From: Monodelphis domestica
Lineage: Eukaryota
Assembly (NCBI RefSeq): GCF_027887165.1
Contig: NC_077227.1
Coordinates: forward strand, 173,162,324-173,226,323
Reading direction: 5' to 3'
Length of the DNA stretch: 64,000 nt
Under the pieces are notes generated by a model. It ran no database searches. It had not been told where the DNA came from and saw only the letters and a program-made list of their open reading frames with translations. The position numbers and the translations under genes are program-made. This document shows, piece by piece, positions 16,521 to 46,832 of the stretch (the stretch's first letter is position 1; each line of letters starts with the position of its first letter).

Positions 16521-16536
16521 TGAAGAATGACTTGTG

Positions 16537-18909: not shown

Positions 18910-19084
18910 GGGGGCAGCTGGGTGGCTCAGTGGATTGAGAGCCAGGCCTAGAGACGGGAGATCGTAGGTTCAAATCTGGCCTCAGACACTTCCTAGCTGT
19001 GTGACCCTGGGCAAGTCACTTGACCCCCAACCATTGCCTAGCCCTTACTTGACTCCAAGATGGAAGGTAAGGGTTTAAAAAAAA
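18910..19084 (+). mobile_element. Marsupial tRNA-derived SINE with a target-site duplication.
   Basis: Flanked by atctatttaa on both sides (18899-18909 and 19085-19094). Confidence 0.85.
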
Positions 19085-21007: not shown

Positions 21008-22396
21008 CCAATTCACTCTCCTCTCTATAGGCTGAGACGTCAGAGAGCAAAGCATTTGTGGTTTCCTCTGGAACTTGCATCTTCACCAAACACTGGAGTT
21101 CTTTAGCAAATGTGAGAAGAACTGTAGCTCCAATCCTCGAAAGGTATTGTTGTACTTCTCTGTGCCTTATGGGGATGGTTCTCAAAACCAATGAATCTAA
21201 ATCAGTTTGAACAACTCCTCTGGCTTCTTTTACATATCTTCTTGGTCCTCTTAATATCAAGGTTAAAGTAGAATGGTTGGCCTCAATCCAAACATTCACT
21301 TTTAAGTCTCCCCAGTTCATTATCTGAAGCAGGTTTTCTCTGGCTTCAGCTAGCTCTGGTCGGGGGAAAATAACTCTGTCCTCAGCTGCTGAATAAGTCA
21401 TCAAATATTCCCTAATATTGGTCTCTGCCTCAGCTACTTCAACTTTAGTTCCTACTATGACCACAGAAGTCAAGATATTTTGCTGGGATTTGACACTATA
21501 AAAAGTGACTTTATTTTTACTTCTTGGTGCTATGAGTAGAGCCTTCCATTCTAAGCCACTGGCTGCCCACTGAACCTCTTCTGCTATATCAATCCTCCTT
21601 TCACAAACCAGATTCTTTAGTAATTCTTCTGCCTGTACCAATTCTCCACAGTCAAGCCCTAAAATCCTAACTCCGTCAGAAGTGCTCAGTACTGCTAAAA
21701 TATCTTGAGCAAGGAAAAAGTTTTCATTAAAGAATTCTTCACCCTGGCTCTGGATAAATTGTACTTGGAACGGAGAAAGCAGGACTGGCCAATCCTTAAA
21801 ACCACTCAAAAGACTATAAAATTGCCTCTCTACCTCAAGCACATTCTGTTGAGGCCCCTGAAAAGTGATCATGCCTAAAGGATCTTCTCCTAAGGCTATG
21901 GTCACTGGAGAGTGGGGAAGAAGTAGCTTGTTTATTGTTTTTTTGACCACTGTATATCTAGGCAGATGGAGAATGGGATGTTCCACACACACTAGTTTTT
22001 CATTAAAAGCCATTTCTTGAACACATTGTATAAACATCTTTACTTCCTCAGTTGGCCCCACAAAGCAAGGACCTTCATATTCTTGTATATTTGCAAATGA
22101 CTTCACTAGTGATTGCTGATTCTTCAGAACATTTAAAATATCCGAGTTGGACTCATAGTAGACAACATATCTCTTTTTATTTTTCTGAAAGGCATACTCT
22201 ACAGCTTTCTCCCAGTTAGATGGATATATGTTTCCTCCTTCTGCTATAAATTTAAGCACTCCCGAAGAAACACATGTTTGGAGAACACAGCCTATCTTCC
22301 TTAAATGACCTTCAAACTCTTGAAAAACAGCTGGGAAGTCATTGAGGTACCGGATGAAAGCACAATCTTCTTTCTGACAGAGACCAACGATGGCCT
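21008..22396 (-). CDS. PARP14: Large internal exon of the PARP14-like gene encoding the KH-like repeat region that lies upstream of the macrodomains in PARP14.
   Basis: The open frame is about 1.38 kb (about 460 codons with no stop) in an AT-rich genome. Segments FLAQDILAVLSTSDGVRILGLDCGELVQAEELL, VQFIQSQGEEFF and ELQCLVKMQVPEE align in order to the human PARP14 segments FIAQKILALYELEGTTVLLTSCSSEALLEAEKQM, FQFLQQVNWKEF and ELQENEV. The donor is GAATTG|GTAAGA at 21002-21010. The acceptor is either cctccttttttctag|AG at 22397 or tctctgtcag|AAA at 22374. Confidence 0.75.
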
Positions 22397-23435
22397 CTAG
22401 AAAAAAGGAGGACAGGGTTGATCAACAAGATTTAAGTAAAAATCTTTTCTAAGTCTTCTCCTTTCTCATTTATAATATTTTGTGGAGAAGTCAGTGGACC
22501 TGTGGACATGAAGCTAGGTGGTATGAAGGATGGAGTGCTAGACTTAGACCCAAAACAAACTTTGTTCAAATCCTGCCTCAGATACCTACTGTATAGAACG
22601 TCCTGAGCAAGTTGCTTCACTTTTCTCAGCTATGCTATACTTGTTTACAAAATAGTGATAGTACAACACAATATTATTTGATCTAAAGTGAAAAAATTTT
22701 TGCAAAGCCCTTAGCAGAGTATCTGAAACACAGTAGGTGCTAGTTATTCCCTTATCTACTTAATAGGGTTCTTGTGAAGATTAAATGAGTTAACAAAGGT
22801 GAAGCACTGTAAAAGTACTTTATAAAGCTTTAAAATGTTATATAAAGATAGCTATTATCATTATTATTATTAATAAATTGAGGGGGTTGGACTTGATAAT
22901 CTCTTGAAGTCTTTTCTATCTCAGAAATCTGTGATCCCCTGGACACCTTCCTTCTCCTTGATACTGTTGATGTCCTTGGCTTCCATGACACTACTCTTCT
23001 GAGCCTCCTCTTTTGTTGGTATTAATCTGTACCCTCTCCCTTGCTCATACTTTTTCTTCATTATGAAAACCAAATGTGGGTGCTCCTCAAGGCTTTGTCC
23101 ATAGTCCTCTTTTTAAATACTCTTTTTCTCTGAGAATTCATCTATTGCCACTGTCTTCAATGACTACCTCTTTGCAAAAGGCTTCCAAATCTATTTTCAC
23201 ACCTGTTCCAAACTTACCTGCAAACTTTTTAAAGCTCCTCATTTTCTGCTCCTATTTTGCCCATCCAACTAATTCCCAACCTGAATCCTCCTTTCTCATT
23301 AAGTACATCTCCCTGCCATATAAAGACACCATGATGATTTAAGGCCCTTTGTCTTTACCTTTCCATTAACCTACAATCTCCTATCTACAACTTCTTTGTT
23401 TGGTCAAATTCTACCCGATTAAAGACTCAAATCAG

Positions 23436-23580
23436 GCTTGGAGTAAGGAGGACTTGGGTTCAAATTTGGCCACAAACACTTCCCAACTGGGTGATTTTGG
23501 ACAAGTCACTTATTTCCAAGTGCTACTCTTTTGTCTTAGAACTGATACTAAGGCAGAAGCTAAGGGTTAAAAAAAAAAAC
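23436..23580 (+). mobile_element. Partial SINE (3' half with poly-A).
   Basis: ggacttgggttcaaatttggccacaaacacttcccaactgggtgattttggacaagtcacttatttcc...aagggttaaaaaaaaaaac. Confidence 0.6.
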
Positions 23581-24218
23581 TCAATCAAATATCAACTCTT
23601 CCATCGAACTCCCAATGATCTCTCTTCTCTGAATTGTACTTATTATCTATACCATGCCCTTAGCATTAATTTTAGATATACATTACTGAATATATATGAT
23701 TATATATATACACACATATATTTGTTTCTTTTTATGTGTATATATGCATATATATGTGCATACACAACAGAGACTAAGACTATGATTTCTCCTTTTCTTT
23801 TGATTTAATTTTACTATTTCCAATAACAAGCATTTATTTTCCCTTGTACTTTTGATTTCATTGGTATGAGGATACCAAGATAAGCAAACTCCCTTTACTG
23901 GTGGGATTAGGAAGAAGTAGGCTGTGAATGACTACAATGATAAATTTGTTATATCAGATAAAGACTTTTGAAGAATGGCAATGTTTGTGAATGAGAAGAT
24001 GCTTGAACTCTCTGGAAAGCTGGGTAACTTCAACTCTATGATATTCCTAGACAGTATATCTTACCAGGAGGAGTCTTGAAATTTTCAGTCATCTGAAACA
24101 GAAAGATGGACAAAACTTGACATATTTAAAAATATTGAGATCAAGCAAACAAAAGAAACCACACCATTTATAAACATGAAAGCACTGCAGCTTTGTACAT
24201 TTTTTTCTAGAAGGGTCC

Positions 24219-24420
24219 TTTAAAAAAAAAAACCCTTAGCTTTCATCTTAGAATCAACAGTGTGTATTGGTTCTAAGGCAGAGAGTGTAAAGGCTAGGTA
24301 GTGTGGGTTAAATGACTTGTCCAGGGTCACACAGCTAGGAAGTATCTGAAGCCAGATTTGAACCCAGAACCTCTCATCTATAGGCCTGGCTCTCAATCCA
24401 CTGAGATACCCAGCTGCCCT
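24219..24420 (-). mobile_element. Marsupial tRNA-derived SINE with a target-site duplication.
   Basis: Target-site duplication ctagaagggtc at 24207-24217 and 24421-24431. Confidence 0.9.
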
Positions 24421-24510
24421 CTAGAAGGGTCTAAGGATGTTTGAATTTGGCTGTTTTAGCACTTTACCTCTAAAGAGCAAAACAACCCCTACAACCCCAC
24501 CCCCTTTCCC

Positions 24511-24638
<128 letters not shown>

Positions 24639-25294
24639 ATCTCTATATCTTTCTCTCCATATAAATAAATAAATAAAAATCTATATATATATATATCTCC
24701 TCTCCTCACATTAACTTTTGAGAGTCCCTGAGCATTAGACCTATAATTACAAATCAATAATCTGAAGAACAAATGACAAAAATGTGCATCTGATGTCACT
24801 GATTTTCACTTTATTGTTGTTTCTGGTGGGGAAGACTTGCTGAAAATCTCAGTTGTCTCTGATCCACCTCCAACCAGGCAATCTATTGCAATTTTCGAGA
24901 AGAAAACCATCTCTTCCCAAAATATCTTGCTTAGATTTCCCCCCACCTAACCTCCCCCCACCCTGCATTAAAGATCTATTATTGGTATTAGTCAATTTTT
25001 GTGTTAAAGTGCAAATCTACATGAGAGAGGTAATGCATTCATCGAGGCAATCAAGTCACTCACACTTCAGGGTGAATTTATTGTACCAGGCTTAATCACT
25101 CAAGAAAGCTAAGTGAAAGTAGTTACCCTTGGGGAACTGAAAGTTTGATAGCATAGAAGGAGACAAAACTTAGGAGCAAGGGGTAAAATTTAGGGAGCAA
25201 AAGTGGAATGTGGCAACAAAATATTGGGGCTCCAAGGCATAAGCAGCAGAAGACATTAGGATCAGAGCAAAGGTGATATTAGAAGCATAAAAAA

Positions 25295-25484
25295 GGGGGC
25301 AGCTAGGTGGCTCAGTGGATTGAAAGCCAGGCCTAGAGACGAGAGGTCCTGGTTCAAATCTGACCTCAGACACCTCTTAGTTGTGTGACCCTGGGCAAGT
25401 CACTTGCCTAGCCCTTACTGCTCTTCTGCCTTGGAACCAATACATGATATTGATTCTAAGATGGAAGGTAGGGATTTAAAAAGA
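25295..25484 (+). mobile_element. Marsupial tRNA-derived SINE with a target-site duplication.
   Basis: Target-site duplication agaagcataaaa at 25281-25292 and 25486-25497. Confidence 0.9.
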
Positions 25485-27407
25485 AGAAGCATAAAAGAGC
25501 CAGGAAGGCGAGTAGAAGGATTCCATAGATATATTCTAATTACTTCACACTCTTGTCTAAGATACCTCTGTCTGTGATTGTTGATGCTGAATTCATTGAA
25601 ACTTTACCTTCTGAGTAGTAGCTGCTCTTGGGGGCTGAACTATCTGCACTAGTTTCATCCATGTGTTGGGTTTTTCCTTTAAGAAGTTATTGATTTCTTC
25701 CAACATAATACACAAGGGATTGGAATTCCCAGGATTCTTGAGGTCTAACATGGGAAAGGAGATGGATTCCAGGAAAGAACCAAGGAAATTGTTCAAGCAG
25801 CTCCAGACCACTTGCTGAATGACCTGCTGCAATGGATAAGAATCATTACAATTATAATAAATATAAATGTAATTAAAATTATAATCCTAATATAAGTATA
25901 ATTACATATTTATAGACCATCCCTGTAAAAATGCCTTGCTATTTGGTGGAAAGTGACAGAAGCTAGGGCAAAGGTTTATATGAGAAACAAGATAAAGCAT
26001 ACATGGTACATTTTGGTACTCTTCCCCCTTCCTCTTGATTCAATACACTTAAAATGAAGTAGGAAGGGATTGATAGGCTTGAAAACAGGCTGGAGATAAA
26101 TGGAGTGGGGAGTTGCCAAACTAGTGCAGCTCTCAGGAATAGGGCCACAGAGTACTTTTCAGGTTAGTCTGTTCTTGAGGTTCATGATATTTTTGTATGT
26201 TCCTTTATACTTTCAATTAATATATACTTATTGTGATACTTATTGTGTACTGACAAGATGTATGGGGGATGATGGTAGATAATGAAGATGACAAAAAGGC
26301 TAGACCAAAGTCCCTAGTCACATGGAGATACTAATCATCTTATTATCTAGTTGGATATATGAGATATGCACATGTAAAAAATTAACACTATAAGGACAAA
26401 TGTATAAATAAACATAATGTATATGAGGAGTTGTTTCCCCATTGTGGACTGGACCAAAAAAGGGAAAAAACAGGCTAAGAATGGACAGGGAACCCCAAAA
26501 AAAGGACTGTTCTATTTTCATCACCAATACCACTTCATTACCTACTATTAGAAAAAACATTATTCAAAACAATAAAAGAAGCTCCCAACTTTGTAGAACT
26601 TTGCAGTTTTAAAAAGTACATTTCACACAATATTCTTGTGAGGTAGAAAGGATAGTTCAGGGTTTATTATTTCCATTTAAAAAACTGAGAAATTGAGACT
26701 TAGAGAAGTGTGTCCACTTTCCCATGGTTGCACTGTTAGTAAATAGTTTGGAGTCAGGTCCTATGACTCCCAAGTCCAAAGAACCCACCATTACACCAGT
26801 CTTGAAGAGTAGGATCAGTATGTTTGAATCAACTGGAATGGGAAACATCTGAGAGGAATTATGGGCTAGTGGATAAATAGCCAAACTGAGAAAGCTTGTC
26901 AAGAAGACTGGGGTGTGAGACTCACTCTCAAGACCCAGTGATACATACCAAAGCTAGACAAATCATTGAGATTCTCCAATCTTCTGGCACACTGCTTTTC
27001 TCCATGTAGTCTATGATCTAGCTAAACTGGCCTCCTTAGGGTTCCAGATATAGAAGCAATAGAATCGTTATATCCTATCATTGCTCTTTTATTTTGCTAT
27101 CTCAAACTGTATGATTGAGGAAAAAACTGTAAGATTTAGTGAGTTAGAGACTGGTAGCTTTGTGGGGTTTTGTTTGGTTTTTGGATTTTTGGTAACTTTG
27201 GAGAGAACAGTTTCAGTTGAGTGATGAAGTCAGAAGCTAGATTGCAAAGTGCTGAGGAGTGAGTCAAGATGAAGTAGAGGCAATGCATGTAGAAAGCTTT
27301 TTCTAGGAGTTTGGTCAAAAAAGGAGGAATAATAAAAGGACTACAGATTGAGGGAATGGTAGGAAGGAATTGAAACAAATTTTAAAGGATGTTTGCAAAC
27401 AATAGGA

Positions 27408-27560
27408 AGGGGGAAGCTGGGTGTCTCTGGATTGAGAGCCAGGCATAGAAATGGGAGGTTCTGGGTTCACATCTGGCCTTCCGAGTACCTATTTCCTAGC
27501 TGCGTGACAATAAGCAAGTCATTTACCCCCATTGCCATTCCCCAGAAAATAGCAATCAGC
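27408..27560 (+). mobile_element. Diverged SINE copy of the same family.
   Basis: gggggaagctgggtgtctctggattgagagccaggcatagaaatgggaggttctgggttcacatctggcc. Confidence 0.7.
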
Positions 27561-29244
27561 CTGGAAGGGAGGGCAAAAAATCGTGAAATATCCTTTCCTA
27601 GTCCCACCTTAGAGTTGGAGTCCCCTCCCCCTCCACGTCCACGTCCCCCTACTCCCACCCCATCATTCTAACTGGTGTTTATCAACTGCAACTTTCAGAG
27701 GGAAACTTTTAGAAATTCCTTTCAATGGTTTAACTTATCCTGGACACATCCATCATCTTATAAGTTGAAGCAAATTATAACTATATAATGGTCTTTTTTT
27801 TTTTCAAGGAAAAGTGCTGATATAATTATAATGCAGAACCATGAATCAGCTAAAATACTAAGTCTAATCAAAAAAAGGAAGAAAAATAAGAAATGCATAA
27901 AATGAATAAAATAAAAATGAGAAACAAGAAAAGATAGCTCGTAAGAAATTAGTGGTAATTACTATAGATAGGTTAGAAATTTGAGAATATCAAAGAAATG
28001 GATGACAATCTCAAAACACATAAAATGCCTAAACTAAATAAAATACATTCTATTCATCTTTTAGTTCTTCCAGAGTTGAAAATATCAAGTCCTAGTGCTA
28101 AGGAGGAAAAACAAATAAAACAAAAAGTTCTCCTCTCTCTCCTAAAGTCACAGGACACAGAATAATCTGTTCTGCCATGGGTGAGTACAGAGGACTAGGA
28201 GGAGAGATGGCAAGCAAAACCCTCTCCCAAATACTTAAAAACAAAAAAACCTGTTCAACAGAAATTGATACCACTCATCTACCTTGGGACCACACACAGT
28301 ATTGATTCTAAGAAGGAAGGTAAGAATTTTTAAAGTTTTTTTTTTTTAATATATAAAAAGGAAAAGAAAACAATAGAGAAGGAACCAGTGGTTGGAAGGG
28401 GGAAGATGTTCATTGATTTGTTAATTCATCATTTTATACAATTTCAGAGAAACTAGAAGTAGCCCTGAATTAAGAGAGGCTTAAGACAGTCCATTTTGTA
28501 AGACTCCATCCATCTGACTCCACTGCACGAAGTGGAGAAGCTGAAGGGTATTCTCAAATGGAAAGATGCTGAGTTCTAGGATTCTAAGGCAATATGGGTT
28601 CATTTGGTCTCAGTCTTGGAAGGGTTGACATCTTTGTGCTACCTCTTCTGAATGACTGATGGTGGAATTACTCCTGCAACCACTAGACCACTGGGTAGAC
28701 CAATAGACTTTTCTGAATCAATCTATACTGGGAATGGCCCATGGACCAAATCTCAGGGTGTATTTATAATTATGTAATTCTTATTCTAAATCTGCCTTTA
28801 TCTCTGAGAAGCCATCACTGTCCATTTCTTTTTTCTTGGTCTTTCTGTTTTCCTCTATCTAATTCTTGCCTGCATCGATTTCTCTCATCTACCTAGACCA
28901 GACATGTGACTATGTAAGATTGTCTGGAGGCAGAAAAAGCCTCTGGGTGATGCCCTGGAAACCCTCAGGAGCAGCACTGGACAGTAACTGGTCCAGTGTA
29001 AGAGAAATCATATCCCAAGGTGCTGGGAGCCATCAGCCCATGATGCCTTCACAGAGCATGGTAGATGGGGACACCACAGAGTGGTCCTTGGCAAAATGTG
29101 ACTGCCCACTCTATCCCTTTTACATTACCTCTTTCATCAATGCTCCTTACCTATGAATTGACATGATTATTATTCCCCCTAGTCTTAAAAGAAATAATGC
29201 AAGAACAAAACACCTGTACCCTAATTCCTCAAAACATCACCAAG

Positions 29245-30295
29245 TAAATTAGGTGAACACAGAATAGTATACATGTCAGACCTTTGGGAAGAGAAAGATT
29301 TAAAAACCAAGCAAGATTTAGAAAGAGTCACAAAATGTAAAATAAATAATTTTGACTACATCAAATTAAAAAGTTTCTGTACAAACAAAACCAATGTAAC
29401 TAAAATTAGAAGGGAGGCAACAAATTAGGAAACAATCTTCATAACAAAAACCTCTGACAAAGGTCTAATTACTCAAATTTACAAAGAATTAAACCAGTTG
29501 TACAAAAAAATCAAGCCATTCTCCAATTGAAAAATGGGCAAGGGACATGAATAGGCAGTTTTCAGTTAAAGAAATCAAAACTATTAATAAGCACATGAAA
29601 AAATGTTCTAAATCTCTTATAATCAGAGAGATACAAATCAAAACAACTCTGAGGTATCACCTCACACCTAGCAGATTGGCTAACATGACAGCATGCAGAA
29701 AGTAACGAATGCTAGAAGGGATGTGGCAAAGTTGGAACATTAATGCATTGCTAGTGGAGTTGTGAATTGATCTAACCATTCTGGAAGACAGTTGGGAACT
29801 AGGCCCAAAGGGCGATAAAAGACTGTCTGCCCTTTGATCCAGCCATAGCACTGCTGGGTTTATACCCCAAAGAGATAATAAGGAAAAATTATTGTACAAG
29901 AATATTCATAGCCACACTCTTTGTGGTGGCCAAAAATTGGAAAATGAGGGGATACCCCTTAATTGGGGAATGGCTGAACAAACTATGGTATATGTTGGTG
30001 ATAGAATACTATTGTGCTAAAAGGAATAATAAGGTGGAGGAATTCCATGGATACTGGAACAACCTCCAGGAAGTGATGCAGAGTGAAGGAGCAGAACCAG
30101 GAGAACATTGTATACAGAGACTGATACACTGTGGTTCAATCGAACATAATGGACTTCTCCATTAATGGCAATACAATGTCCCTGAACAATCTGCAGGGAT
30201 CTATGAGGAAAAAAAAAAACTATTATCAAGCAGAGGACAAACTGTGGGAGTAAAAACACTGAGGAAAAGCAACTGTTTGACTACAGAGGTGGAGG
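29245..30295 (+). mobile_element. Older L1 3' fragment (ORF2 C-terminus plus 3'UTR), left part, split by the young L1 insertion.
   Basis: ORF2 C-terminal homology ([33 protein letters not shown]...). It ends at the target-site duplication of the nested L1. Confidence 0.85.
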
Positions 30296-30883
30296 GGATA
30301 TGATTAAGAGATGCTAAATGAGAGACTTCCGGGTAATCATGGCTGCAACCTAGACGCCGCACGCTTCCTCTCCCCAGCACCGAACGAAATAGACTACATC
30401 AAAGGAGCATAAAATCACCTTTGGAGGAACAGAAGGACTCCCCAGTACCCCACAGAGGCAAAGGTACGTGGGGCTTGAACATTTCCACACTAAAATAAGA
30501 AGGAAAAGCTTGCACAGAAAAGTGAACTGAGCCGCCCTTCCCCCACCCCACCTCCCCCACTAAACCAGAGTGAGCTACCTGAGCGCTCACCGGGACAGCG
30601 AGTGAGTGGGGAGCGTCTCTGTCTGGGGGGGCACTCCAGGGTCCTTGGGATCTGGGGACTGCCAGGAAAAAACGTCTCAGGGCGCTTTCACTGGAGAATC
30701 CAGCGGACCTGGACTTGGGGCGGGCTGCGCTGAACAACGCGCGCTGATTATCTGGGCGGAGCTGAATACCTGGGCTCGGAGGCTGGGAAGAACTAGTCTG
30801 AAGCAACCTAAATTCACAGAAAAACCGCTCTTATAACCCAGACCACAGACCAAAAAGGAAAGGGAAATAAAACCACCAAAGGG

Positions 30884-31867
30884 ATGGCTCACATGGCCCA
30901 AAATCAAGCCTCCAGGAAGAAAGGGAAAAAAGTGACTATTGAAAACTTTTATGGTGGAAGTACCCAAGGAAAAGAGGAGAATGAGGAGGAAATCCAAAAA
31001 AATTCAGAACACGCCTCCCAAAATGGAAACTATCAACAAGCTCTGGAAGATCTCAAACTGGAACTTATCCAAAAGATGGAAACCTTCTGGAAAGAAAAAT
31101 GGGAGAAAGAGATCAGCTGTCTGACAGATAAGACTGCTCAATTGGAAAAAGAACTCGAAGCATCCAATAGAAGGGCAGACAAGGCTGAAAAGCAAATCCA
31201 GTCCCTAATGACCAGAATTAAGCACCTCGAAGAAAGTGAGATGATAAAACAGCAAGAATCAATAAAGCAAACCCAAATAATTAATGAATTGGAAGAAAAC
31301 ATAAAATATCTCACTGAGAAGGTCACGGACCTGGAGAACAGAGGAAGACGAGAAAATCTCCGTATCATCGGTCTCCCAGAAAAACCAGAGGTAAACAACA
31401 AATTGGATATTATTCTAGAGGAGATTATAAAAGAAAATTGCCCCCACGTTCTGGAGCAAGGGGGCAAAATAGAAATAGAAAGGATTCATAGAACACCTTC
31501 TATACTAAATCCCCAAAAGACAACGCCCAGGAATGTAATTGCCATATTCAAGAGCTTCCAAGTAAAGGAGAAAATCCTACAAGAAGCCAAGAAGAAGAGC
31601 TTCAGATATAAGGGGGCTCCCATAAGGATCACACACGACTTAGCGGCTAATACACTAAGAGACCGCAAAGCATGGAACACGATATTTAGAAAGGCAAGAG
31701 AGCTGGGTCTCCAACCAAGAATCAACTACCCAGCAAAACTGACTATATACTTCCAGGGGAAAGTATGGGCATTCAACAAAATAGAAGATTTCCAAGCATT
31801 TGCTAAGAAAAGACCAGAGCTCTGTGGAAAGTTCGATATCCAAGCACAGAAAGCAAGAGAAACATGA
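30884..31867 (+). CDS. L1 ORF1 protein (327 aa), intact.
   Basis: Coiled-coil-rich translation (LEDLKLELIQKMETFWKEKWEKEI...) with the C-terminal RNA-binding region of L1 ORF1p. A second, diverged copy of the same protein begins at 63346. Confidence 0.9.
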   Translation: MAHMAQNQASRKKGKKVTIENFYGGSTQGKEENEEEIQKNSEHASQNGNYQQALEDLKLELIQKMETFWKEKWEKEISCLTDKTAQLEKELEASNRRADKAEKQIQSLMTRIKHLEESEMIKQQESIKQTQIINELEENIKYLTEKVTDLENRGRRENLRIIGLPEKPEVNNKLDIILEEIIKENCPHVLEQGGKIEIERIHRTPSILNPQKTTPRNVIAIFKSFQVKEKILQEAKKKSFRYKGAPIRITHDLAANTLRDRKAWNTIFRKARELGLQPRINYPAKLTIYFQGKVWAFNKIEDFQAFAKKRPELCGKFDIQAQKARET

Positions 31868-32553
31868 AAAGGTAAATATTAAAGAAAGGGAAAAGGAGAT
31901 AAATCTTATCTTTTTCTTTAAGTCAAACTCTCTTCTATAAGGACTACATTTACATCAAATTATATATATTAATATGTGGGGAAAATGTTTTGTGTAACTC
32001 TCATAAATTGTATCATCATAAGAGTAGTTAGAAGAAACATGCATAGGGAAAGATTGGGGAATTAAGAAGATTTGGGGAAAGTTGGGGCAAAAAAAGGAAA
32101 AGGGAGGGGGGAACCGTGATAATACTAAGATTAACTTCAAGAAATAGGGGGGGAATCAATAGAATAAACTTTCCCATATAAAGATACACATGGGAAGGGG
32201 AGGGGAAGAACTCTCATATGAGAAGGAGAGGAAGAGAGCGTGAAGTGGAATTACTTAAACCTTACTCTCAGTGAAATCAAATCTGAGAGGGAAGAACATC
32301 TAGATCCAGTGGGATCCTGAATTCTATCTTATCCATTAGGGCAAGAAAGAAAGGAAAATTAAGGAGGGGGAGGGGGGAGGGAGTACAAAAAGGGAGGGAA
32401 GGAGAAGGGGGAGGGGAAGGGAGCATAAAAAGGGAGGGGCTAGAAAGGGAAGCATCTCAAGGGAGGGGACTAGGGGGACTGACCTAAAGTAAATCACTGG
32501 TTCAAAAGGAGAAAGCTAAAGAAGAAAGGTCAGAACTAGGGGAAGACATCAAA

Positions 32554-35500
32554 ATGCCAGCGAATCCACAAATCACAATCATAACTTTGAACGTGAATGG
32601 GATGAACTCACCCATAAAATGCAGACAAATAGCAGATTGGATTAGAACACAAAACCCTACCATATGTTGTCTTCAAGAAACACATATGAGACGGGTTGAC
32701 ACTCACAAGGTTAGAATTAAAGGTTGGAGGAAGACCTTTTGGGCCTCAACCGATAGAAAGAAGGCAGGAGTTGCAATCATGATATCTGACAAAGCCAAAG
32801 TACAAATAGACCTGATCAAAAGGGACAGGGAAGGTAAATATATTCTGCTAAAAGGAAGTATAGACAATGAGGAAATATCACTAATCAATATGTATGCACC
32901 AAATGGTATAGCATCCAAATTTTTAATAGAGAAACTAGGAGAATTGAAGGAGGAATTAGACAGTAAAACCATATTAGTGGGAGACTTGAACCAACCACTA
33001 TCAAATTTAGATAAATCAAATCAAAAAATAAATAAGAAAGAGGTAAAAGAGGTGAATGAAATCTTAGAAAAATTAGAATTAATAGACATATAGAGAAAAA
33101 TAAATAGGGACAAAAAAGAATACACCTTCTTTTCAGCACCACATGGCACATTCACAAAAATAGATCATACACTAGATCATAGAAACATGGCACTTAAATG
33201 CAGAAAAGCAGAAATATTAACTGCAGCCTTTTCAGATCACAAGGCAATTAAAATATTGATCGGCAAGGGTACATGGAGACCCAAATCAAAAATTAATTGG
33301 AAATTAAATAACACGATACTCCAAAATCGGATAGTTAGAGAAGAAATCATAGAAACAATTAACAATTTCGTTGAAGAAAATGACAACGGCGAAACATCCT
33401 TTCAAACCTTATGGGATGCAGCCAAGGCAGTACCTAGAGGAAAATTCATATCCCTGAGTGCATATATTAACAAATTAGGGAGGACAGAGACCAAGGAATT
33501 GGAAATGCAAATAAAAAAACTTGAGAATGAACAAATTAAAAACCCCCAGAAGAAAACCATACTAGAGATTCTAAAAATTAAGGGAGAAATTAATAAAATA
33601 GAAAGTGACAGAACTATTGAGCTAATAAACAAGACTAGAAGCTGGTACTTTGAAAAAACAGACAAAATAGACAAAGTACTGGTTAATTTAATTAAAAAAA
33701 GGAAAGAAGAAAGGCAAATTAATAGCATCAAGGATGAAAAGGGGGATCTCACCTCAAATGAAGAGGAAATTAAGGCAATCATTAAAAACTACTTTGCCCA
33801 ACTATATGGCAATAAATATACCAACCTAGGTGATATGGATGAATATTTACAAAAATATAAATTGCCTAGACTAACAGAAGAAGAAATAGTTTTCTTAAAT
33901 AATCCCATATCAGAAATTGAAATCCATCAAGCCATCAAAGAACTGCCTAAGAAAAAATCCCCAGGGCCTGATGGATTCACCAGTGAATTCTATCAAACAT
34001 TCAGAGAACAGTTAACCCCAATATTATACAAACTATTTGACATAATAAGCAAAGAGGGAGTCCTATCAAACTCCTTTTATGACACAAGCATGGTACTAAT
34101 TCCAAAGCCAGGCAGGCCAAAAACAGAGAAAGAAAACTATAGGCCAATCTCCCTAATGAATATAGATGCAAAAATCTTAAATAGGATACTAGCAAAAAGA
34201 CTCCAGCAAGTGATTAGAAGGGTCATCCACCATGATCAAGTAGGATTCATACCAGGGATGCAGGGCTGGTTCAACATTAGGAAAACTATCCACATAATTG
34301 ACCACATCAACAAGCAAACCAACAAGAATCACATGATTATCTCAATAGATGCAGAAAAAGCCTTTGATAAAATACAACACCCATTCCTACTAAAAACACG
34401 AGAAAGCATAGGAATAGAAGGGTCATTCCTAAAAATAATAAACAGTATATATCTAAAACCATCAGCTAATATCATCTGCAATGGGGATAAACTAAATCCA
34501 TTCCCATTAAGATCAGGAGTGAAACAAGGATGCCCATTATCACCTCTATTATTTGACATTGTATTAGAAACACCAGCAGTAGCAATTAGAGAAGAAAAAG
34601 AAATTGAAGGCATCAAAATAGGCAAGGAGGAGACCAAATTATCACTCTTTGCAGATGACATGATGGTCTACTTAAAGAATCCTAGAGACTCAACCAAAAA
34701 GCTAATTGAAATAATCAACAACTTTAGCAAAGTTGCAGGATACAAAATAAACCCACATAAGTCATCAGCATTTCTATATAATTCCAACACAGCTCAGCAG
34801 CAAGAACTAGAAAGAGAAATCCCATTCAAAATTACCCAAGACAAAATAAAATACTTAGGAATCTATCTCCCGAGACAAACACAGGATCTATATGAACACA
34901 ACTACAAAACACTTTCCATACAACTAAAACTAGACTTGAACAATTGGAAGAACATTAACTGCTCATGGGTAGGACGAGCCAATATAATAAAAATGACCAT
35001 CCTACCCAAACTCATCTATCTATTTAGTGCCATACCCATGGAACTTCCAAAAATTTTTTTTACTGACTTAGAAAAAAACATAACAAAGTTCATTTGGAAG
35101 AACAAAAGATCAAGGATATCCAGGGAATTAATGAAAAAAAATACAAAGGAAGGGGGTCTTGCAGTCCCAGATCTCAGACTATATTATAAAGCAGCGGTCA
35201 TCAAAACAATTTGGTACTGGCTAAGAGACAGAAAGGAGGATCAGTGGAATAGACTGGGGGCAAGCAACCTCAGCAAGACAGTATATGACAAACCCAAAGA
35301 TCCCAGCTTTTGGGACAAAAATCCACTATTTCATAAAAACTGTTGGGAAAATTGGAGGACAGTGTGGGAAAGATTAGGCTTAGATCAACACCTCACACCC
35401 TACACCAAGATAAATTCAAAATGGATGAATGACTTGAACATAAAGAAGGAAACTATAAGAAAATTAGGCGAACACAGAATAGTATACATGTCAGACCTTT

Positions 35501-36360
35501 GGGAAGGGAAAGACTTCAAAACCAAGCAAGAATTAGAAAGAATTACAAAATGCAAAATAAATAATCTGGATTACATCAAATTAAAAAGTTTTTGTACAAA
35601 CAAAACCAATGTAACCAAAATCAGAAGGGTAGCAACAAATTGGGAAACAATCTTCATAAAAACCTCTGACAAGGGTTTAATTACTAAAATTTATAAAGAA
35701 CTAAATCAATTGTACAAAAAATCAAGCCATTCTCCAATTGACAAATGGGCAAGGGACATGAACAGGCAATTCTCAGCCAAAGAAATCAAAACTATTAATA
35801 AGCACATGAAAAAGTGCTCTACATCTCTTATAATCAGAGAGATGCAAATCAAAACAACTCTGAGGTATCATCTCACACCTAGCAGATTGGCTAACATGAC
35901 AGCTATGCAAAGTAATGAATGCTGGAGGGGATGTGGCAAAGTGGGGACATTAATTCATTGCTGGTGGAGTTGTGAATTGATCCAACCATTCTGGAGGGCA
36001 ATTTGGAACTATGTCCAAAGGGCGATAAAAGACTGTCTGCCCTTTGATCCAGCCATAGCACTGCTGGGCTTGTACCCCAAAGAGATAATGGACAAAAAGA
36101 CTTGTACAAAAATATTCATAGCTGCGCTCTTTGTGGTGGCCAAAAATTGGAAAATGAGGGGATGCCCCTCAATTGGGGAATGGCTGAACAAATTGTGGTA
36201 TATGTTGGTGATGGAATACTATTGTGCTAAAAGGAATAATAAAGTGGAGAAGTTCCATGGAGACTGGAACAACCTCCAGGAAGTAATGCAGAGCGAGAGG
36301 AGCAGAACCAGGAAAACATTGTACACAGAGACTGATACATTGTGGTACAATCGAAGGTGA
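32554..36360 (+). CDS. L1 ORF2 protein (endonuclease, reverse transcriptase, C-terminal domain), interrupted by a single in-frame TAG at 33091-33093.
   Basis: Endonuclease start [22 protein letters not shown]. The reverse-transcriptase motif FADDMMVY is present. Two ORFs (32554-33093 and 33187-36360) lie in the same frame and are separated only by one TAG. The minus-strand L1 copy has TGG (Trp) at the same position. Confidence 0.9.
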
Positions 36361-36629
36361 TGGACTTCTCCATTAGTATCAATGCAATCCCTGAACAATC
36401 TGCAGGGATCTAAAAAAAAAATACTACCCACAAGCAGAGGATAAACTGTGGGAGTAAAAACACCGCTGAAAAGCAACTGCTTGACTACAGGGTTGGAGGA
36501 GATAAGACTGAGGAGAGACTCTAAATGAACACTATAATGCAAACTCCAACAACAGGGAAATGGGTTCGAGTCAAGAACACATGTGATAACCAGTGGAATC
36601 ATTCGTCGGCTATGGGAGAGGGAAAGGCG

Positions 36630-36660
36630 GGGGGGGGGGGGGGGGGGGAGGGGGGGGGAG
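36630..36660 (+). repeat. G-tract in the 3'UTR of the full-length L1: (G)19 A (G)8 A (G)8.
   Basis: aggcgggggggggggggggggggagggggggggagg. Confidence 0.9.
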
Positions 36661-36737
36661 GAAAAGAAAACGATCTTTGTTTCCAGTGAATAATGTATGA
36701 AAACGACCAAATAAAATAATATTAAAATTAAAAAAAA

Positions 36738-36950
36738 AAAAGAGATGCTAAATGAGCACCCTAATGTAAATACCAACAAGGAAATGGGTCCGGAGCAAGG
36801 ACACATGTGATACACAGTGGAATCACTCGTTGGCTAGGGGAGGGTGGTGGGGGGATGGGGGAGGAAAAGAAAATGATCTGTTTCCAATTAATAATGTATG
36901 AAAATGACCAAATAAAATAATGTTTAAAAAAAAATCACCAAAAGATCAGA
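36738..36950 (+). mobile_element. Right part of the older L1 3'UTR with its poly-A tail. It resumes after the nested young L1.
   Basis: The sequence starts with the duplicated aagagatgctaaatgag and continues as an L1 3'UTR (gggatgggggaggaaaagaaaatgatctgtttcc...tttaaaaaaaaa). Confidence 0.8.
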
Positions 36951-37265
36951 CCCTTAAAACCAATCCCCAAAAGATTAGCATGAGTTAACTTTTATTTAGG
37001 TACATAATTCCCAGCAAAACTGCAGCTACAGGCCAAGCCCAAAACTTTCCCACTTACAGAAACCTATTCTCATGAAGCCAGTACACAAATCAATCATATA
37101 GGCCCAGACAATAAGTACATCAGGCTTCAGTATGCCTCAGTGACTCAATTACACAAATCAGTAATTCAGGAACTCCCTAGTAGAAAGCCTGAGAAATGAC
37201 CAGTCTAAATTTGAATTATGTTCCCGGTACCCCTCAACCTCAATAATATGATTGTTGAATTGTCT

Positions 37266-37469
37266 TTTTTTTTTTAAACCCTTACCTTCCGTCTTGGAGT
37301 CAATACTGTGTATTGGCTCCAAGGCAGAAGAGTGGTAAGGGATAGGTAATGGGGGTCAAGTGACTTGCCCAGGGTCACACAGCTAGGAAGTGGCTGAGGC
37401 CAGATTTGAACCTAGGACCTCCCATCTCTAGGCCTGGCTCTCAATCCACTGAGCTACCCAGCTGCCCCC
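37266..37469 (-). mobile_element. Marsupial tRNA-derived SINE with a target-site duplication.
   Basis: Target-site duplication tgaattgtctt at 37255-37265 and 37470-37480. Confidence 0.9.
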
Positions 37470-38989
37470 TGAATTGTCTTTTAAAAACTGCTGATTAATT
37501 ATTCCATTTTATTAAAAACAATGAGTAATTTTCCTTGATTGTTTGTAAGCTCAAAACTTCTCACAGGGTAATGAGAAAATTAAGCCACCTGTGATGAAAT
37601 AATTTATTTTGTATTCTGTCTGTAATCACAATACAAAAATATAAGAATGTTAATCAAGTGATTTGTTAAAAGTTAATGTATCACTTTTCCAATTATCTCT
37701 CTTTGAACATGTGTGTTAAGTAATGCAATCTGCATGCCAAGAAAATGGGTATAAAAATAAAAATCAAGCCTGGGAATGACGGAGCAGCTGTCAGATGCAA
37801 AGCAGTTCCATGGCCATAATGATTAAGCTCTCTTCTGTTTGTTATTTATTTGGACAGATCATTCGCCACCTTTCAGGAACCCTGAAGTCATAAGTGAGGC
37901 TGGACTCTGATTGCAGCACCAAGGATTCCCACCTGCACCTCAGACAACAGGAAAGCTCTAAGAGTTCTAAAGTGGAAACTTTATATTGGCCTTGAGGAGA
38001 TTTATTTTTAATATATATTGAATTATTTCTATATTTGTGTTTAGAATTAGAAGTTCAAATCAGTCCTTCAGTCTTAGTACTCAATTCCTTTATGAAACTC
38101 TCCCCCAAAGAATTACTCCCATCATAGAACAGATAGGAAATCGAGATGATGGGAGAAATATGAGATTTGCCTTACTCAGTAAACAAAACCAACTTAAGCT
38201 AGATGTAACCACATGAGGCCAAATGAGTCCTTCGTCTCTTACTGGAAATCACTACAGGGTCAGTTATGAATGGGTAGAACTGGACTTCTGGATAGCTGTG
38301 GAGCAGGAGACTTGCATATCACTAACCTGCCATCAACAGGGGAAGGGGAACAGGTGAGAATTTTGATGGATCAACTCCTCACTGGCAAGATTCTCTGAGG
38401 AAAAGACAGGAACCAGGCAAATCAAACCACTACCACTACCTCAATTTCTACCTCCCCTCAAAGCTCAATGAAGATAACCCCTAACCTAAACTCAAGCTCC
38501 TTGAGAATAGCTACTCCCCACCCAGAGCATTGCCTTATTTCCAGCGTCAGCCATCACTGGAAAAAGTAATTGTTATTAAAAAGGCTCCTCTTTCTCACAA
38601 CTCCTACCAACACTAACGGCTGACCAATTCCCAAGGACAAGCAGATAAGTCTATGACCCCTACTAAAATCAACACACACTACACCATGGTCTTGTTTCTA
38701 GTCTAGCCCCTATGGCCATTTTCCTGGGGAACAGCCCTATGGAGATGTTTTTACAGTTACTACAGCTTGGTCTTGGCACCCACAGGTACTGAAAACTTCA
38801 AGAAGAAAGTTCTTACCTCGAAAGCCCTTGGAATGATAAAAGAACTAAACATCAGAAATAGACATGATTTTATCAGTGGAAATGACATTAAAGAAAATGC
38901 ATTATCATTTGCTTTGTTGTGGTATTTTAAGGATTATGGGATCTTTCTATTTGACTTGCAGCTGAAACCTCCTAAATGTTTGATCTCCC

Positions 38990-39110
38990 CCATCAGAATG
39001 TGAGCTCCTCAAGAGCAGGGACTGTCCTGCTTTTCTGTTTATAACCCCAGCACCTAGTACAATGCTTTACACATAATAAATGCTTAGTAAAATGCTTCTT
39101 CATTCATTCA
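38990..39110 (+). mobile_element. 3' portion of a MIR-like SINE.
   Basis: atgtgagctcctcaagagcagggactgtcctgcttttctgtttataaccccagcacctagtacaatgctttacacataataaatgcttagtaaaatg. Confidence 0.6.
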
Positions 39111-39670
39111 TATTCAAACAAATGTTAGGTCCCACCTTGTCTTCTAGGTGCTGTTGAATTAATCTTATATCCAGGCAGATGATGTATAGGATCTGGCAAT
39201 GCAGACCAGGCAAGCTGGAAGCAGGAAGGGTGATGATATTTCCATGGAAGAGAGCCTGGGCATCAAGAATGATCTTCAGTGCTGCCTGGACCTGGGCAGA
39301 AGTCTCCCAGACCCCATTCCTATTGTGGGGCTTCAGAAACCAAGGTAAAACCACCACATCTGTCTGTGAACAAACAAGAAGCCCAAGAAGACAGAACAAA
39401 AATGAAGATGAACATCCTCTTAAAAAAAAAAAAACAAATGTTTCAATCAGGTAAAAGAATTCAAAGATATTTCCCTCAGCCTTAAAATTGCCAGAGCCCT
39501 CTATTCCTCCTTCCCTTGGCCCAAATAGGGATCCCCAGATCCCTTATGTGCTGAAAAATCCCCATGGAAATAAAGTCCAAAGTATTCCTAGATCACCAGT
39601 TCCAAGTATCAATCCTCACTGTCTAGATGGTCTTTCTTTTGTCCATCTTATTTTATTTTGTTCTACTTTT

Positions 39671-40233: not shown

Positions 40234-41292
40234 CTTCTGGTCAATGAGGCTTCCAACTACCACCTTCGTTTTTACAGCTTCCCAAGAGCTCAAGACATAG
40301 GGAAGGAGGACGTGGTGATCCTTTCCTCGGGGCCACCACCTGCAGCATTCTGCCTCACACTCAGCTACAAAGTCATTGTCATTTGCTGCAATTGTCAGGT
40401 TCCTCAGGCTGCTGCCTGGAGGCTGCTTGCTCTTAAATGCCTTGACTCCCAGAGTGATTCCCTTCGCTAGAGCTGCCAGGTCTGAGGGGTGGATCACCAC
40501 TGAAGCACTTTTCTCCTGGGATGCTGCTTGCAGTGCCAGAGTAACAGCATTGGCTATCAGCTCTTGGCTTTCAGCCTTAGAAGCCTGCCTCTTCCGTGAG
40601 CTGTGCCCAGACCAGGAAGATAAGAGTGTCACTTGTAGGAGTACTTGGGGAATACCTCGTTCATTCACTATATGCTGTCTCAGCACCCTTACCTTGGGGG
40701 CTGTTATGCCCATGCTGTGTCTATCCATTGGACTACTGCTAAGGCTTATGGTAACAGAGGCTCGAAAAGTGCAAGCTTCTCCTTTCCAGAGAAAGAGACT
40801 AAGGTCATCTCCTAGCTGGAAGAAACCACTCATCCTTCTACGCTCCTGAATCAGGCCAGGCCATAGGTTCATCCTCACAGTGGAATTGAGAAAGATCATC
40901 AGTTTACTGATGGCAGTCTTGGCCTCAGAGGCCACTTTCTGAGGACCAAAGAAGGAAATGATTGCAGAGTTCTCGATTAGTTGCCAGCCAACTTGCACCT
41001 TCCAGAGAGACAAATCCAGTGTTTCCTGTAGGACCATCCATAAGCAGAACTCCTCAGGGGTCACATAGAGCGTTTCATTTGTCCTGGGGTATCTCTGAAG
41101 GTGATCCTGTATCAACCAGATTTTATTGTCCCCAGAGGGGCCTTTTGGTTGTCTCCCCGAGATTCTCAGGAAAGGATCAGAAGGTTTGGCTCTGTCCCAG
41201 CTGAACCTGGGATCCCAAAGATCTTTATCATTTGAGACTTTTTTATAGCAGGCTTTTGGATGAGGTCCATTGCAGGTCAGAGACCCAGACAT
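40234..41292 (-). CDS. First coding exon (353 codons from the ATG) of an unidentified protein. It may be a lineage-specific 5' exon of the PARP14-like gene or a separate neighbouring gene.
   Basis: An ATG at 41292 is preceded by an acceptor-like T-rich tract, attttgatatag|AAG. The open frame is 1059 nt and ends at a consensus donor, CAGAAG|GTAAGT (40228-40236). GC content is higher than the flanks. I cannot assign a domain. Confidence 0.45.
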
Positions 41293-42235
41293 AGTTGATC
41301 GACCTTTTTACTTCTATATCAAAATTCAAAAGCCACCTGCCAGATTCCCCTACTTTTCTGGAAAAGGGTTAAAAAAGGATGTCATGTAAGAAAAATAATC
41401 ACAGCCTGGTATTGATAATAGTTAAGTATGATTAGCGACTTCTCTATGTACTCACCCCTGTGGGAGATGATACTCAGGAGAATTTACCAACTTGCATTCT
41501 GAAGGGAGTAGGGCTGGGCCAGGATAAAAATTTGATTTCTGTCTTTCTTTGCTTCTCTTTTTCATCCTATGTGTCTCTGTTCCCTATTAGTCAAGGTTAT
41601 GGGAGTGGAACTGGAGGAATAAAAGGAAAGAAAGACCACTTAAAGGAAGAGCTCCAGAAGTAGAGCTGTGTGAATGGAGCAAAATTATTTAAAACCCAAT
41701 GGCATAAGAAACAAACTAGGATGCAATTAAAATTAGGAGTGCTATCAGAGGATTTTCAAACCTATGTAGGAATATCAGGATTGTACCTTTGTATATATTC
41801 CTAAAACTAAATTGAGGCTATATTTTTCAGCTGTTTGTTCACTGTAATGCCCCTACTTATACTCTAGTTCTATCCTTCCTTCCCTTCCTCCCATTTACTT
41901 CCTTCTTATGTCAGGGTTGAAGGCATTTTTCCTACAGTAATTTTTTACTATAGCTCACTTGCAATCGTTATTCCATTTATGACCTATAAATATCATGATA
42001 TAATATTCTTTTAATTTTTCACTTTCAGTTTCAAATTCTCTCCATCCCTCCAACCTCTCTCCCATCTAATGAGAAAGCAAGAAATATGAAACCATTATAC
42101 ATATGAAGTCATGTAAAATATATTTCCATACTAGTCATGTTGTGAAAAAAAAAGCAAGAAAAATAAAGTGAAAAAAATATGCTCCAATCCACACTTAAGA
42201 GTCCATCAGTTCTCCCTGGAGGTAGATAGCATTTT

Positions 42236-42421: not shown

Positions 42422-42429
42422 GTAGATAA

Positions 42430-44440: not shown

Positions 44441-45544
44441 TATAGTACAAATATTTTGTATCACAGACACTTGGACTCCTGGCTATTCTCCAAAGTCAAT
44501 ATATTATCTACTGACTTGATATTAGCATGAATTATATCCCATGCTGTGAATGTATTTCTCAATTCTATCCTCAACTTCATTATCTTCCTTCGAAGCTCAC
44601 TTCAGATACTATCTCCTCAGTTATGCTTTCCACCATTCCCCCTCACACAGTTAATACTCCTTCCTTAATCAAACACTTTGTATTTATCTGTGATAGTATA
44701 GGTATGTGTGCACATTCATATATACATATATGCACACATGTGTGCCTAAACACATATAACATAAGTGTGTGTACACATACTTGGGCACATATATACACAG
44801 ATAGAGAGCTATACACATATGAATATATATCCCCAAGCAGAATATTGGTGCTTGAGGAACAAAATTCTTTTTTATCTTGGTACAGTGCCTTACATGAGGG
44901 AGGCACTTAAGCAGCTGTTGAATTAAATCAAGTATGGAAGACCCAGCCACCCAGAGGAAGTCATTTCTATAAACATCCAGTCACATAATCTTACTATTCT
45001 TTAAGTGGCTCTGAGGTTTTGAGCTCACTGGGAGGAATTTATTAAGCCGTAAACAGAGTTAAAACCAAACCAAACAAACAAACAAAAAAAACCCAAGTCT
45101 GCCACACATGTGACACTTTTATTTTAAACAATTTTTAACATTAAAAAAAAAAAAACATCCCACACTCACCTACCGAAGTGATACTGGCTCCATCATTCCT
45201 TTTTACCAAAAATCACTTTTTCCCAGCATAGATATCCCTGTGACTCTCCTCTGACCATCCAGTATATTCTGCCAAATGACTCTCTTCTTTTTATATAGGA
45301 TCGTTCCCACAATCAGCAATCAAAACGTCAAGCTCTCCAAAGACAATTATATTTCAGTTTCATTTCCTTGAAAATTTACCCAATCCCTTTACTCCAGAAG
45401 GTGGTGTTTAAAATGTATATGGGGTGTGGGGGTGAGGGGAGAGATTGACAAAGAGAGATATATATACGAGTTTATCAAACCTCAACACTTTCAGGATGAG
45501 CATATGAATAAAGATAGGTGAGGAGAAAATGGAGAAAATTTGAA

Positions 45545-45650
45545 GACTTTAAAGCTAGAATTGAACCCCACCCCCTCCGTCCCTCCGCCCCTCGCCCCTC
45601 TCAGTTTCCATTTCTGCAGCGATTTAAGTGCTCAAAACTGAAACTGAATT
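45545..45650 (-). promoter_or_regulatory. Interferon-responsive promoter-like module: two ISREs, a GC-box cluster and a TATA-like box, ordered for minus-strand transcription.
   Basis: AGTTTCCATTTC at 45603-45614 is an ISRE in reverse orientation. AAAACTGAAACTGAA at 45634-45648 carries GAAA half-sites at 6 bp spacing. The GC-rich block ccccaccccctccgtccctccgcccctcgcccctc spans 45567-45600. TTTAAAG lies at 45548-45554. A strong donor, cttcg|GTAGGTGAGT, sits about 350 nt downstream on the minus strand (45164-45174). Confidence 0.4.
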
Positions 45651-46832
45651 ATTTCCCACCCCTTTCCTCCCCTACAGCTCAGTAAGCAACAATCCAGCAG
45701 CAGCTGTTTCATCCATAAAGCAAGGGAAGATCTAGAGGAAACCGACCAAGTAATGAAAAAGATAGAACCTCCAGAGAAAAGATTAAAGGACTCTGAGGGC
45801 TTATTCAATCTGCAAAAGAGGAAAAAAGTAAGGGAAAACTGAATAACTACCTTCCAAACATTAATAGGTTCTACTACAGAAGATAGTAATCAGCGGTTGT
45901 CTTTTCACCCTCCGCCAAATGAGACTATGGATTGCAAGACAGCTAGAATGAAGTTCAGGTGACAGATTTATCCGGCAATCTTCCCTCCTCCACACCACCC
46001 CCAACCCGGAAGTGTCCTCCAGAGCACCAAGAAGGCACTACTGGTATAGTGGAAAGAGTACAGGCTCTGGAGGCAGGAGACTTCGGGTCAAATCTTACCT
46101 TTGTTAATTAATTACATTATCTGTGTGAACTTGGACAAATGACTTAATCTATTGGTGCCTCAAGTTTTTGTTTTTTTTTTAATCTGTTCAAAGAGGGTGT
46201 TAGCTTAGTTTCTCTCAGAACCCTTCCTGATCTAAATCTCCGATTCCTATGCACAGATCAGTCAGTGCATTTAAGCATTTGCTATGTGCCAAGCACTGTG
46301 CTAAGTGCTGACTTACAAAAAAGGCAAAAGGCAATCCCTGCTCTCAGAAAGCTTACAGTCTCCTGGAAAAATAATATGCAAACAACTATATCTAAATGAA
46401 CTATAAAAGGGATAGATTGGAAATAATCAAGAGAGGGAAGGCCTGGTCTTCTGTAAAAGAAAAGAGTTTAACTAGGTCTTTTAAAAAAGCCAAGGAAGCC
46501 AATGAGGAAGGTGAGCATTCCAGCTGAAAAATGGGGCTAATAGAACCTCCCTCTCAGTTGTAGGATGGATAAAATATTTGTAAAGCACTATATAAATGTT
46601 AGCTATTATTCTCCTCCCTGTTAAATCATTCTACATTTATTTAGATTATCATGCATCTCCTGCCCTCTAAGAATAGGTGTTTCTCAAGGCTCTAATGCTG
46701 AACCCTTTTTTCCTCTGTAAGCTTTCCTTTGGTGATCTCATCTGTCTCCTTGGTTCATTTGTCATTTTTATACAAGTAAAAAGCTGAGGCATGATCACAT
46801 CATAGAGGCTACAAGTGAGTACAATTCATTTT

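Follow-up and report, generated by a model that had tools for sequence, protein, structure and literature searches.

A predicted interferon-responsive promoter with a conserved GAS/ISRE composite element upstream of an uncharacterised marsupial PARP14/15-like gene

Promoters of classical interferon-stimulated genes (ISGs) carry an interferon-stimulated response element (ISRE; consensus (A/G)NGAAANNGAAACT) or an interferon regulatory factor element (IRF-E) within about 100-400 bp of the core, in either orientation, and these sites turn over between lineages. Clustered STAT and IRF motifs are also found in the primate MER41 long terminal repeats (LTRs), which are transposon-derived, interferon-inducible enhancers. 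PARP14, a protein of about 1800 aa with RNA recognition motifs (RRMs), three macrodomains, KH domains, a WWE and an ART domain, is encoded beside PARP9/DTX3L. For human PARP14, Table S4 of Sekrecka et al. 2023 (PMC10287828) lists a mutagenesis-validated composite of an ISRE and a gamma-activated site (GAS), and the same table lists PARP9/DTX3L as an ISRE+GAS composite with 17-nt spacing; the bidirectional promoter of PARP9/DTX3L is interferon-gamma-responsive according to Juszczynski et al. 2006, as cited in PMC13224862. Here we analyse a stretch of 64,000 nucleotides from Monodelphis domestica (NC_077227.1, positions 173,162,324 to 173,226,323), referred to as the window, in which positions 45150-45660 of the minus strand probably constitute an interferon-responsive promoter, poor in CpG and with a TATA box, that serves an uncharacterised PARP14/15-like gene (Table 1).

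Close comparison was made with one species, the sugar glider Petaurus (locus L001). The two loci are collinear: L001 8403-9459 aligns to window positions 46352-45214 and L001 9641-11303 to positions 41665-40007. Across the promoter region, a MAFFT alignment has an overall column identity of 56% when gap columns are counted. Two interferon elements stand above this level: a composite element, identical at 29/29 positions, and a distal ISRE stretch, TTCAGTTTCAGTTTTGAG, identical at 17/18. Within the composite, a GAS (TTCAAGGAA, 45372-45364) overlaps an IRF-E/ISRE (GGAAATGAAACTGAAA, 45368-45352), and the IRF-E GAAACTGAAA occupies 45361-45352. No identical run in the aligned non-coding DNA 5' of the coding region is longer than this 29-nt block, which is also among the top 15 identical runs, mostly coding, in 24.8 kb of aligned sequence. 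While GAS strings (TTCNNNGAA) alone occur in the window at chance frequency, the pattern TTTCNNTTTCNTTTCCNNGAAA, derived from the human PARP14 entry, has one match in the window, even with 2 mismatches allowed, and one in Petaurus L001, at the orthologous position.

The comparison with human PARP14 rests on the Table S4 entry of PMC10287828, in which, as in the window, a GAS shares sequence with an ISRE built from TTTC half-sites. On the plus strand, window positions 45350-45373 read TA-TTT-CAG-TTT-CA-TTTCC-TT-GAAA; the human site listed there has the same spacing, TTTC-2-TTTC-1-TTTCC-2-GAAA, and 19/24 positions are identical by manual count. As at human PARP14, the gene 3' of the composite has a PARP14/15-type catalytic domain. 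Unlike human PARP14, however, it is a different paralog with no detectable macrodomains, a length of 1365 aa (Petaurus) and a TEP1 neighbourhood. The resemblance between the two sites may stem from common descent or from convergence, and the data fit both.

The module also shares features with the other described systems. Like the classical ISG promoters (ISG15, IFIT1/2, IFI6, OAS and MX1), it has an ISRE/IRF-E near a CpG-poor TATA core, but its proximal element is one base off the strict GAAANNGAAACT spacing and is fused to a GAS. Like the PARP9/DTX3L promoter, it is predicted to confer interferon responsiveness on a gene of the macro-PARP family, although that promoter is bidirectional and the window module is not. 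As with MER41-type elements, a compact non-coding STAT/IRF cluster is found close to an immune gene amid abundant transposons; in contrast to MER41, the window segment is single-copy in the DNA examined, occupies the orthologous position in a distant marsupial, and has no identified LTR hallmarks.

Downstream of the composite block, by about 55 nt, lies TATATAAAAAG (45297-45287), followed by an initiator (Inr)-like GGCAGA whose A, at 45270, is 25-27 nt from the TATA box (27 nt when counted from the first T of TATA). In Petaurus, TATTAAAG is located 29 nt from the same CA as in the window's Inr-like motif. From these motifs, transcription is predicted to start at about 45265-45272. Positions 45286-45214 are 85% identical to Petaurus, a level that appears typical of a core promoter plus exon, and are followed by a 41-nt window-specific insertion (45213-45173) absent from Petaurus. 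The sequence comparison suggests that the selectively maintained core consists of the GAS/ISRE composite, the TATA box and the Inr, at 45379-45264. Conservation of the composite and the TATA box points to a first exon about 100 nt long instead of the exon of about 350 nt put forward in the original prediction.

This exon would end at tandem donors (the slash marks the exon boundary), which were ranked with an approximate matrix. Among minus-strand GT sites, TAG/GTGAGT (last exon base 45170) reaches the 99.65th percentile and TCG/GTAGGT (last exon base 45174) the 96.6th. Petaurus carries the donor G/GTATGT at the aligned point, and in both species the donors directly precede the same T-run. A strong donor had been proposed here with its split at 45174; the donor is present, with the Petaurus donor aligned to it, but this split is the weaker of the two. 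The window-specific insertion makes an 8-codon upstream open reading frame, ATGATGGAGCCAGTATCACTTCGGTAG, at 45195-45171 on the minus strand, which ends exactly at the stronger donor and has its second ATG in a good Kozak context. A coding first exon beginning at ATGATGG (45195) was rejected: it falls in the insertion, has a TAG with the stronger donor, and is separated from the ATG at 41292 by an in-frame TAA.

From this arrangement we infer the start site, splicing pattern, factor binding and interferon induction. Upon an interferon signal, STAT1 dimers (gamma-activated factor, GAF) would occupy the GAS at 45372-45364, and ISGF3 or IRF1 would occupy the overlapping IRF-E/ISRE at 45368-45352, about 85-100 nt 5' of the start. 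Extra input might come from the conserved distal ISRE (45634-45648), and from a lineage-only ISRE (45603-45614) with a GC box. TBP would bind TATATAAA (45297-45290) and transcription would begin near 45270, yielding a ~100-nt non-coding exon 1 spliced at 45174/45170 to the ATG exon (41292), possibly via a 5' untranslated region (5'UTR) exon at about 41610-41488. Analogous arrangements may exist in two distant orthologs, where the evidence is weaker and at the level of patterns. In a softshell turtle, 24 kb contain a single ISRE, GGAAAGTGAAACC, located 500 bp 5' of the annotated coding sequence (CDS), with a donor GCAG/GTACCC about 105 nt after it; in a rattlesnake, AAAAG/GTGAGT comes about 125 nt after the IRF-E GAAAGTGAAAG, 4.3 kb 5' of the CDS.

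Several points weigh against such a promoter, beginning with the reliance on a single species for close comparison. The Petaurus equivalent of the TATA box, ATATTAAAG, lies nearby and is imperfect, and TATA-type strings are plentiful in the AT-rich window (122 matches to TATAWAWR) and uninformative alone. Donors as strong as those described occur about 0.4 times per kb. The spacing of the proximal element, GAAA-T-GAAACT, is one base off a strict ISRE and fits the IRF-E GAAACTGAAA better. The approximately 350 nt 5' of the ATG (41660-41293) are 84% identical to Petaurus, above the coding exon itself, and transcription might start there. Finally, an island at 45826-45794 (minus strand) could mark a further upstream exon or, alternatively, an ETS site. 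This island, at least 92% identical to Petaurus, resembles a strong 3' splice site (ttttttcctcttttgcag/ATTGAATAAGCCC) and is located about 160-200 nt 5' of the distal ISRE; its plus strand has a PU.1-like AAAGAGGAAAAA, and no conserved donor follows it.

The original prediction had rested on two ISREs, a GC-box cluster, a TTTAAAG and a donor. The two ISREs, a GC box, TTTAAAG and the donor are all present where it placed them, and its central proposal of an interferon-type regulatory module facing the minus-strand gene is supported by the rarity of the motifs and by the conservation of the composite and the distal ISRE. In the 64 kb, GAAANNGAAACT occurs 2 times versus 0.34 expected, a relaxed ISRE pattern 9 times versus 2.5, and GGGCGG 5 times versus 1.7. 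The consensus ISRE matches lie near the gene's predicted 5' end, and a group of at least three IRF/ISRE-type sites within 300 bp arose in 0.3% of simulations with a first-order Markov model; the window has one other group of this kind, inside an L1. The distal ISRE contains the match AAAACTGAAACT (45634-45645), and a relaxed-ISRE match occurs once in the 39-kb Petaurus locus, at its orthologue. Six IRF-E matches occur in the same 39 kb of Petaurus DNA, one of them at the orthologous place. The supposed GC-box cluster is a period-8 micro-repeat, CCCCTCCG, in about 3.8 copies, within which one canonical GC box occurs. The ISRE1 segment is 53% identical to Petaurus, where the motif is destroyed, and the G-rich repeat has a 26-nt gap and 21% identity. 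Judged by this alignment, ISRE1, the GC-box repeat and TTTAAAG appear to be mostly lineage-specific additions.

These distal motifs could nonetheless direct the main start, about 25-30 nt 3' of TTTAAAG (about 45520), with tandem ISREs and GC boxes driving transcription of a ~350-nt exon that extends to 45174/45170. The upstream-to-core order of ISRE1, ISRE2, GC box and TTTAAAG and the conservation of the distal ISRE agree with this, and a second promoter gained in this lineage might exist alongside the proximal one. We nevertheless consider a main start at the distal motifs unlikely, because ISRE1, the GC-box repeat and TTTAAAG, the core as first proposed, are not conserved in Petaurus, whereas the composite and TATA box, which had been overlooked, are. 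Moreover, the best-conserved elements (composite, TATA and initiator block) would then fall inside the exon, and a ~350-nt exon would hold several ATGs.

Ranked next, and likewise improbable, is that the module acts as an upstream interferon-responsive enhancer, with transcription starting in the conserved stretch at about 41400-41660 by the ATG exon. The distance between the two is 0.65 kb in Petaurus and 4 kb in the window, through L1 and short interspersed element (SINE) insertions; most of the 3.8-kb intron in the window consists of insertions (L1, SINE and others) absent from Petaurus, and this swelling, together with the high identity of the stretch by the ATG exon, is compatible with a start there. 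However, no conserved ISRE, TATA or Inr arrangement was found in that stretch, and a donor lies 3' of the module in both species. In addition, the strong, conserved acceptor at 41611 and the donors after it, TTG/GTAAAT (last base 41488, conserved) and GGG/GTGAGT (last base 41456, strong, window only), look like an internal exon, which requires an upstream first exon and fits a start at the module. These signals suggest a small non-coding exon 2 near 41610-41488. Into the ATG exon, the acceptor gcag/GTGGC (AG 41338-41337) is conserved in Petaurus. The acceptor that the earlier proposal of direct splicing apparently implied, in our reading and with no coordinate given, is ttttccag/ at 41359-41358; it reads ttttccaa in Petaurus.

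That the motif cluster arose by chance or neutrally, or is an old transposable element without a regulatory role, is very improbable: the DNA is indeed AT- and transposon-rich, and IRF-like purine runs occur in L1 too (30858-31020 and 42017-42039), but no second copy of the region turned up in the window or in 112 kb of fetched loci, its orthologue lies at the corresponding place in Petaurus, the interferon elements being conserved far above the flanking sequence, and such clustering seldom arises in simulations.

Table 1 Features of the predicted promoter module and of the minus-strand gene (window coordinates; a slash marks an exon boundary)
Feature	Position	Strand	Sequence and evidence
Distal ISRE (ISRE2)	45634..45648	+	AAAACTGAAACTGAA, fits RAAANNGAAACT; conserved in Petaurus
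ISRE1, canonical	45603..45614	-	AGTTTCCATTTC on plus, GAAATGGAAACT on minus; exact GAAANNGAAACT
G-rich micro-repeat, period 8	45566..45600	-	CGGAGGGG-type; one GC box GGGCGG, 45585-45590
TTTAAAG, TATA-like	45547..45553	-	Petaurus aligned position: CTTCAAG
GAS/ISRE composite element	45351..45379	-	GTAAATTTTCAAGGAAATGAAACTGAAAT; 29/29 identical to Petaurus
TATA box	45288..45297	-	TATATAAAAA; perfect TATAWAWR in two registers (TATATAAA/TATAAAAA)
Initiator region	45264..45291	-	AAAAGAAGAGAGTCATTTGGCAGAATAT; one of four islands at least 92% identical in the 1.1-kb alignment
Non-coding exon 1, about 100 nt, predicted	45171..45270	-	conservation and sequence
Tandem 5' splice sites	45164..45175	-	CG/GTAGGTGAGT at 45175-45164; two donors 4 nt apart
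Candidate non-coding exon 2	41457..41610	-	conserved acceptor cctccag/, AG 41612-41611
ATG exon	40234..41336	-	conserved acceptor gcag/GTGGC, start 41292, 353 codons, donor AAG/GTAAGT after 40234
Remaining coding exons, PARP14/15-like gene	10307..39384	-	tblastn, Pfam, ORF scan
Coding exon 2	39384-39142	-	
Coding exon	25826-25605	-	
Coding exon with KH	22385-21012	-	
Coding exon	18254-18195	-	
Coding exon, KH8/WWE	15536-15012	-	
Coding exons	12126-11974 and 11281-11108	-	
ART exon, then stop	10570-10310	-	

The gene served by the proposed promoter was delineated with the 1365-aa Petaurus protein, which matches nine collinear minus-strand exons from 41292 to 10310 (tblastn against the window). 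This supports the suggestion of a single transcription unit comprising the 353-codon exon together with the PARP14-like exons. An exhaustive HMMER search returned the Petaurus breviceps 'uncharacterized protein' XP_068953802.1 (1365 aa), 73% identical from residue 1; a Sarcophilus protein, 70% identical, and remoter relatives in a lizard, snakes, turtles and a caecilian were found as well. No placental-mammal relative was returned in one search, for which the query was the fast-evolving N-terminal exon only; this hints at gene loss in eutherians. The start codon at 41292 is the same ATG as the Petaurus protein start, and an in-frame TAA at 41310-41308, six codons 5' of it, blocks an N-terminal extension.

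The 374-aa open reading frame (ORF; 41292-40168), representing the first coding exon, has no Pfam or PDB match. Elsewhere in the gene's protein, Pfam detects KH and WWE domains of PARP14 type and an ART domain, and the ART catalytic domain is nearest to PARP15, then PARP14; neither a macrodomain nor an RRM was matched in Pfam or PDB. With 1365 aa in Petaurus, no detected macrodomain or RRM, and neighbours different from those of PARP14, the gene is, as far as its sequence indicates, a PARP14/15-like paralog and not PARP14 itself. The NCBI 'uncharacterized protein' is most likely the product of a PARP14/15-like mono-ADP-ribosyltransferase gene. Its ability to bind or hydrolyse ADP-ribose may have been lost. 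By eye, the exon at 39384-39142 (minus strand; TDVVVLPWFLKPH...ITLPASSLPGLHCQILYIICLD) resembles a degenerate macrodomain remnant, with no macrodomain match in Pfam or PDB. A further-reaching proposal, which we put forward tentatively and regard as somewhat doubtful, is that the gene is an unrecognised macrodomain-less interferon-stimulated PARP of the TEP1/TTC5 neighbourhood, that it kept the ISRE-GAS switch of a PARP14 ancestor by descent, and that it represents a lineage of antiviral ADP-ribosyltransferases which was lost in eutherians.

An ISRE/GAS promoter at a PARP-family gene belongs to an expected class; the added interest lies in the uncharacterised paralog and in the PARP14-like switch. 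If confirmed, the promoter would add an unannotated, interferon-inducible PARP paralog to the innate-immune repertoire of marsupials and sauropsids. It would also represent a fused GAS-ISRE switch that stayed intact over a deep marsupial divergence while nearby ISREs and GC boxes came and went. For annotation, the gene in the window species would begin about 4 kb 5' of its annotated start codon.

The genomic neighbourhood bears on the gene's identity. In Petaurus, the divergent upstream neighbour, arranged head-to-head (L001 1-286), encodes 2626 aa with TROVE, NACHT and WD40 domains and is TEP1-like; it starts about 9.7 kb away. In the rattlesnake (Crotalus), the downstream neighbour is TTC5-like (L002 45596-48626). 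We take these TEP1 and TTC5 neighbours to match the TTC5-CCNB1IP1-PARP2-TEP1 block of human 14q11. Neither PARP9 nor DTX3L is present in the window, and with a TEP1-like neighbour in Petaurus the locus need not be a PARP9/DTX3L/PARP14 cluster. The argument that an ISRE-driven promoter suits a PARP14, PARP9 and DTX3L locus is weakened accordingly, as it is by the lack of detectable macrodomains. A bidirectional promoter of the PARP9/DTX3L type was rejected, as no divergent gene lies close to the module. In the window, no plus-strand gene start was found within about 18 kb upstream of the module, and the adjoining 46.9-51.1 kb are filled by an L1 and repeats.

Further features were observed in intron 1. 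A very strong match to an IRF-E/ISRE-like triplet, GAAACTGAAAGTGAAA, at 42017-42039 (minus strand), about 0.7 kb 5' of the ATG exon, looks transposon-derived; it was rejected as a proximal promoter element, being situated in an old L1 3' tail within the intron with no Petaurus counterpart. At 45047-45020 (minus strand), GCTTAATAAATTCCTCCCAGTGAGCTCA is about 88-96% identical to Petaurus (L001 9551-9628), where it is bounded by tttccag/ and /gtaagat in the manner of a cassette exon; the window is without both signals (acgg, AATAGTAAG). Possible readings of this segment are a 5'UTR exon confined to one lineage and a regulatory element within the intron. Rfam returned no hits to RNA families for positions 41000-47000.

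L1 and tRNA-derived SINE copies abound in the window, which is vertebrate DNA. The 5' part of the gene is bracketed by two inverted L1s, at 30884-36360 (plus strand) and 46900-51100 (minus strand), whose arms are 87-93% complementary. The L1 on the plus strand lies within an intron of the PARP14-like gene and retains an open ORF1 of 327 aa, together with an ORF2 segment of 1057 aa, indicating that it is young. Another intronic segment, 24500-24690, is a long (CT)n/(GA)n microsatellite, translated as SLSLSL... in the ORF list. Outside the exons matched by the Petaurus protein, an intronic 34-nt run at 27241-27208, TCTAGCTTCTGACTTCATCACTCAACTGAAACTG, is fully identical in Petaurus.

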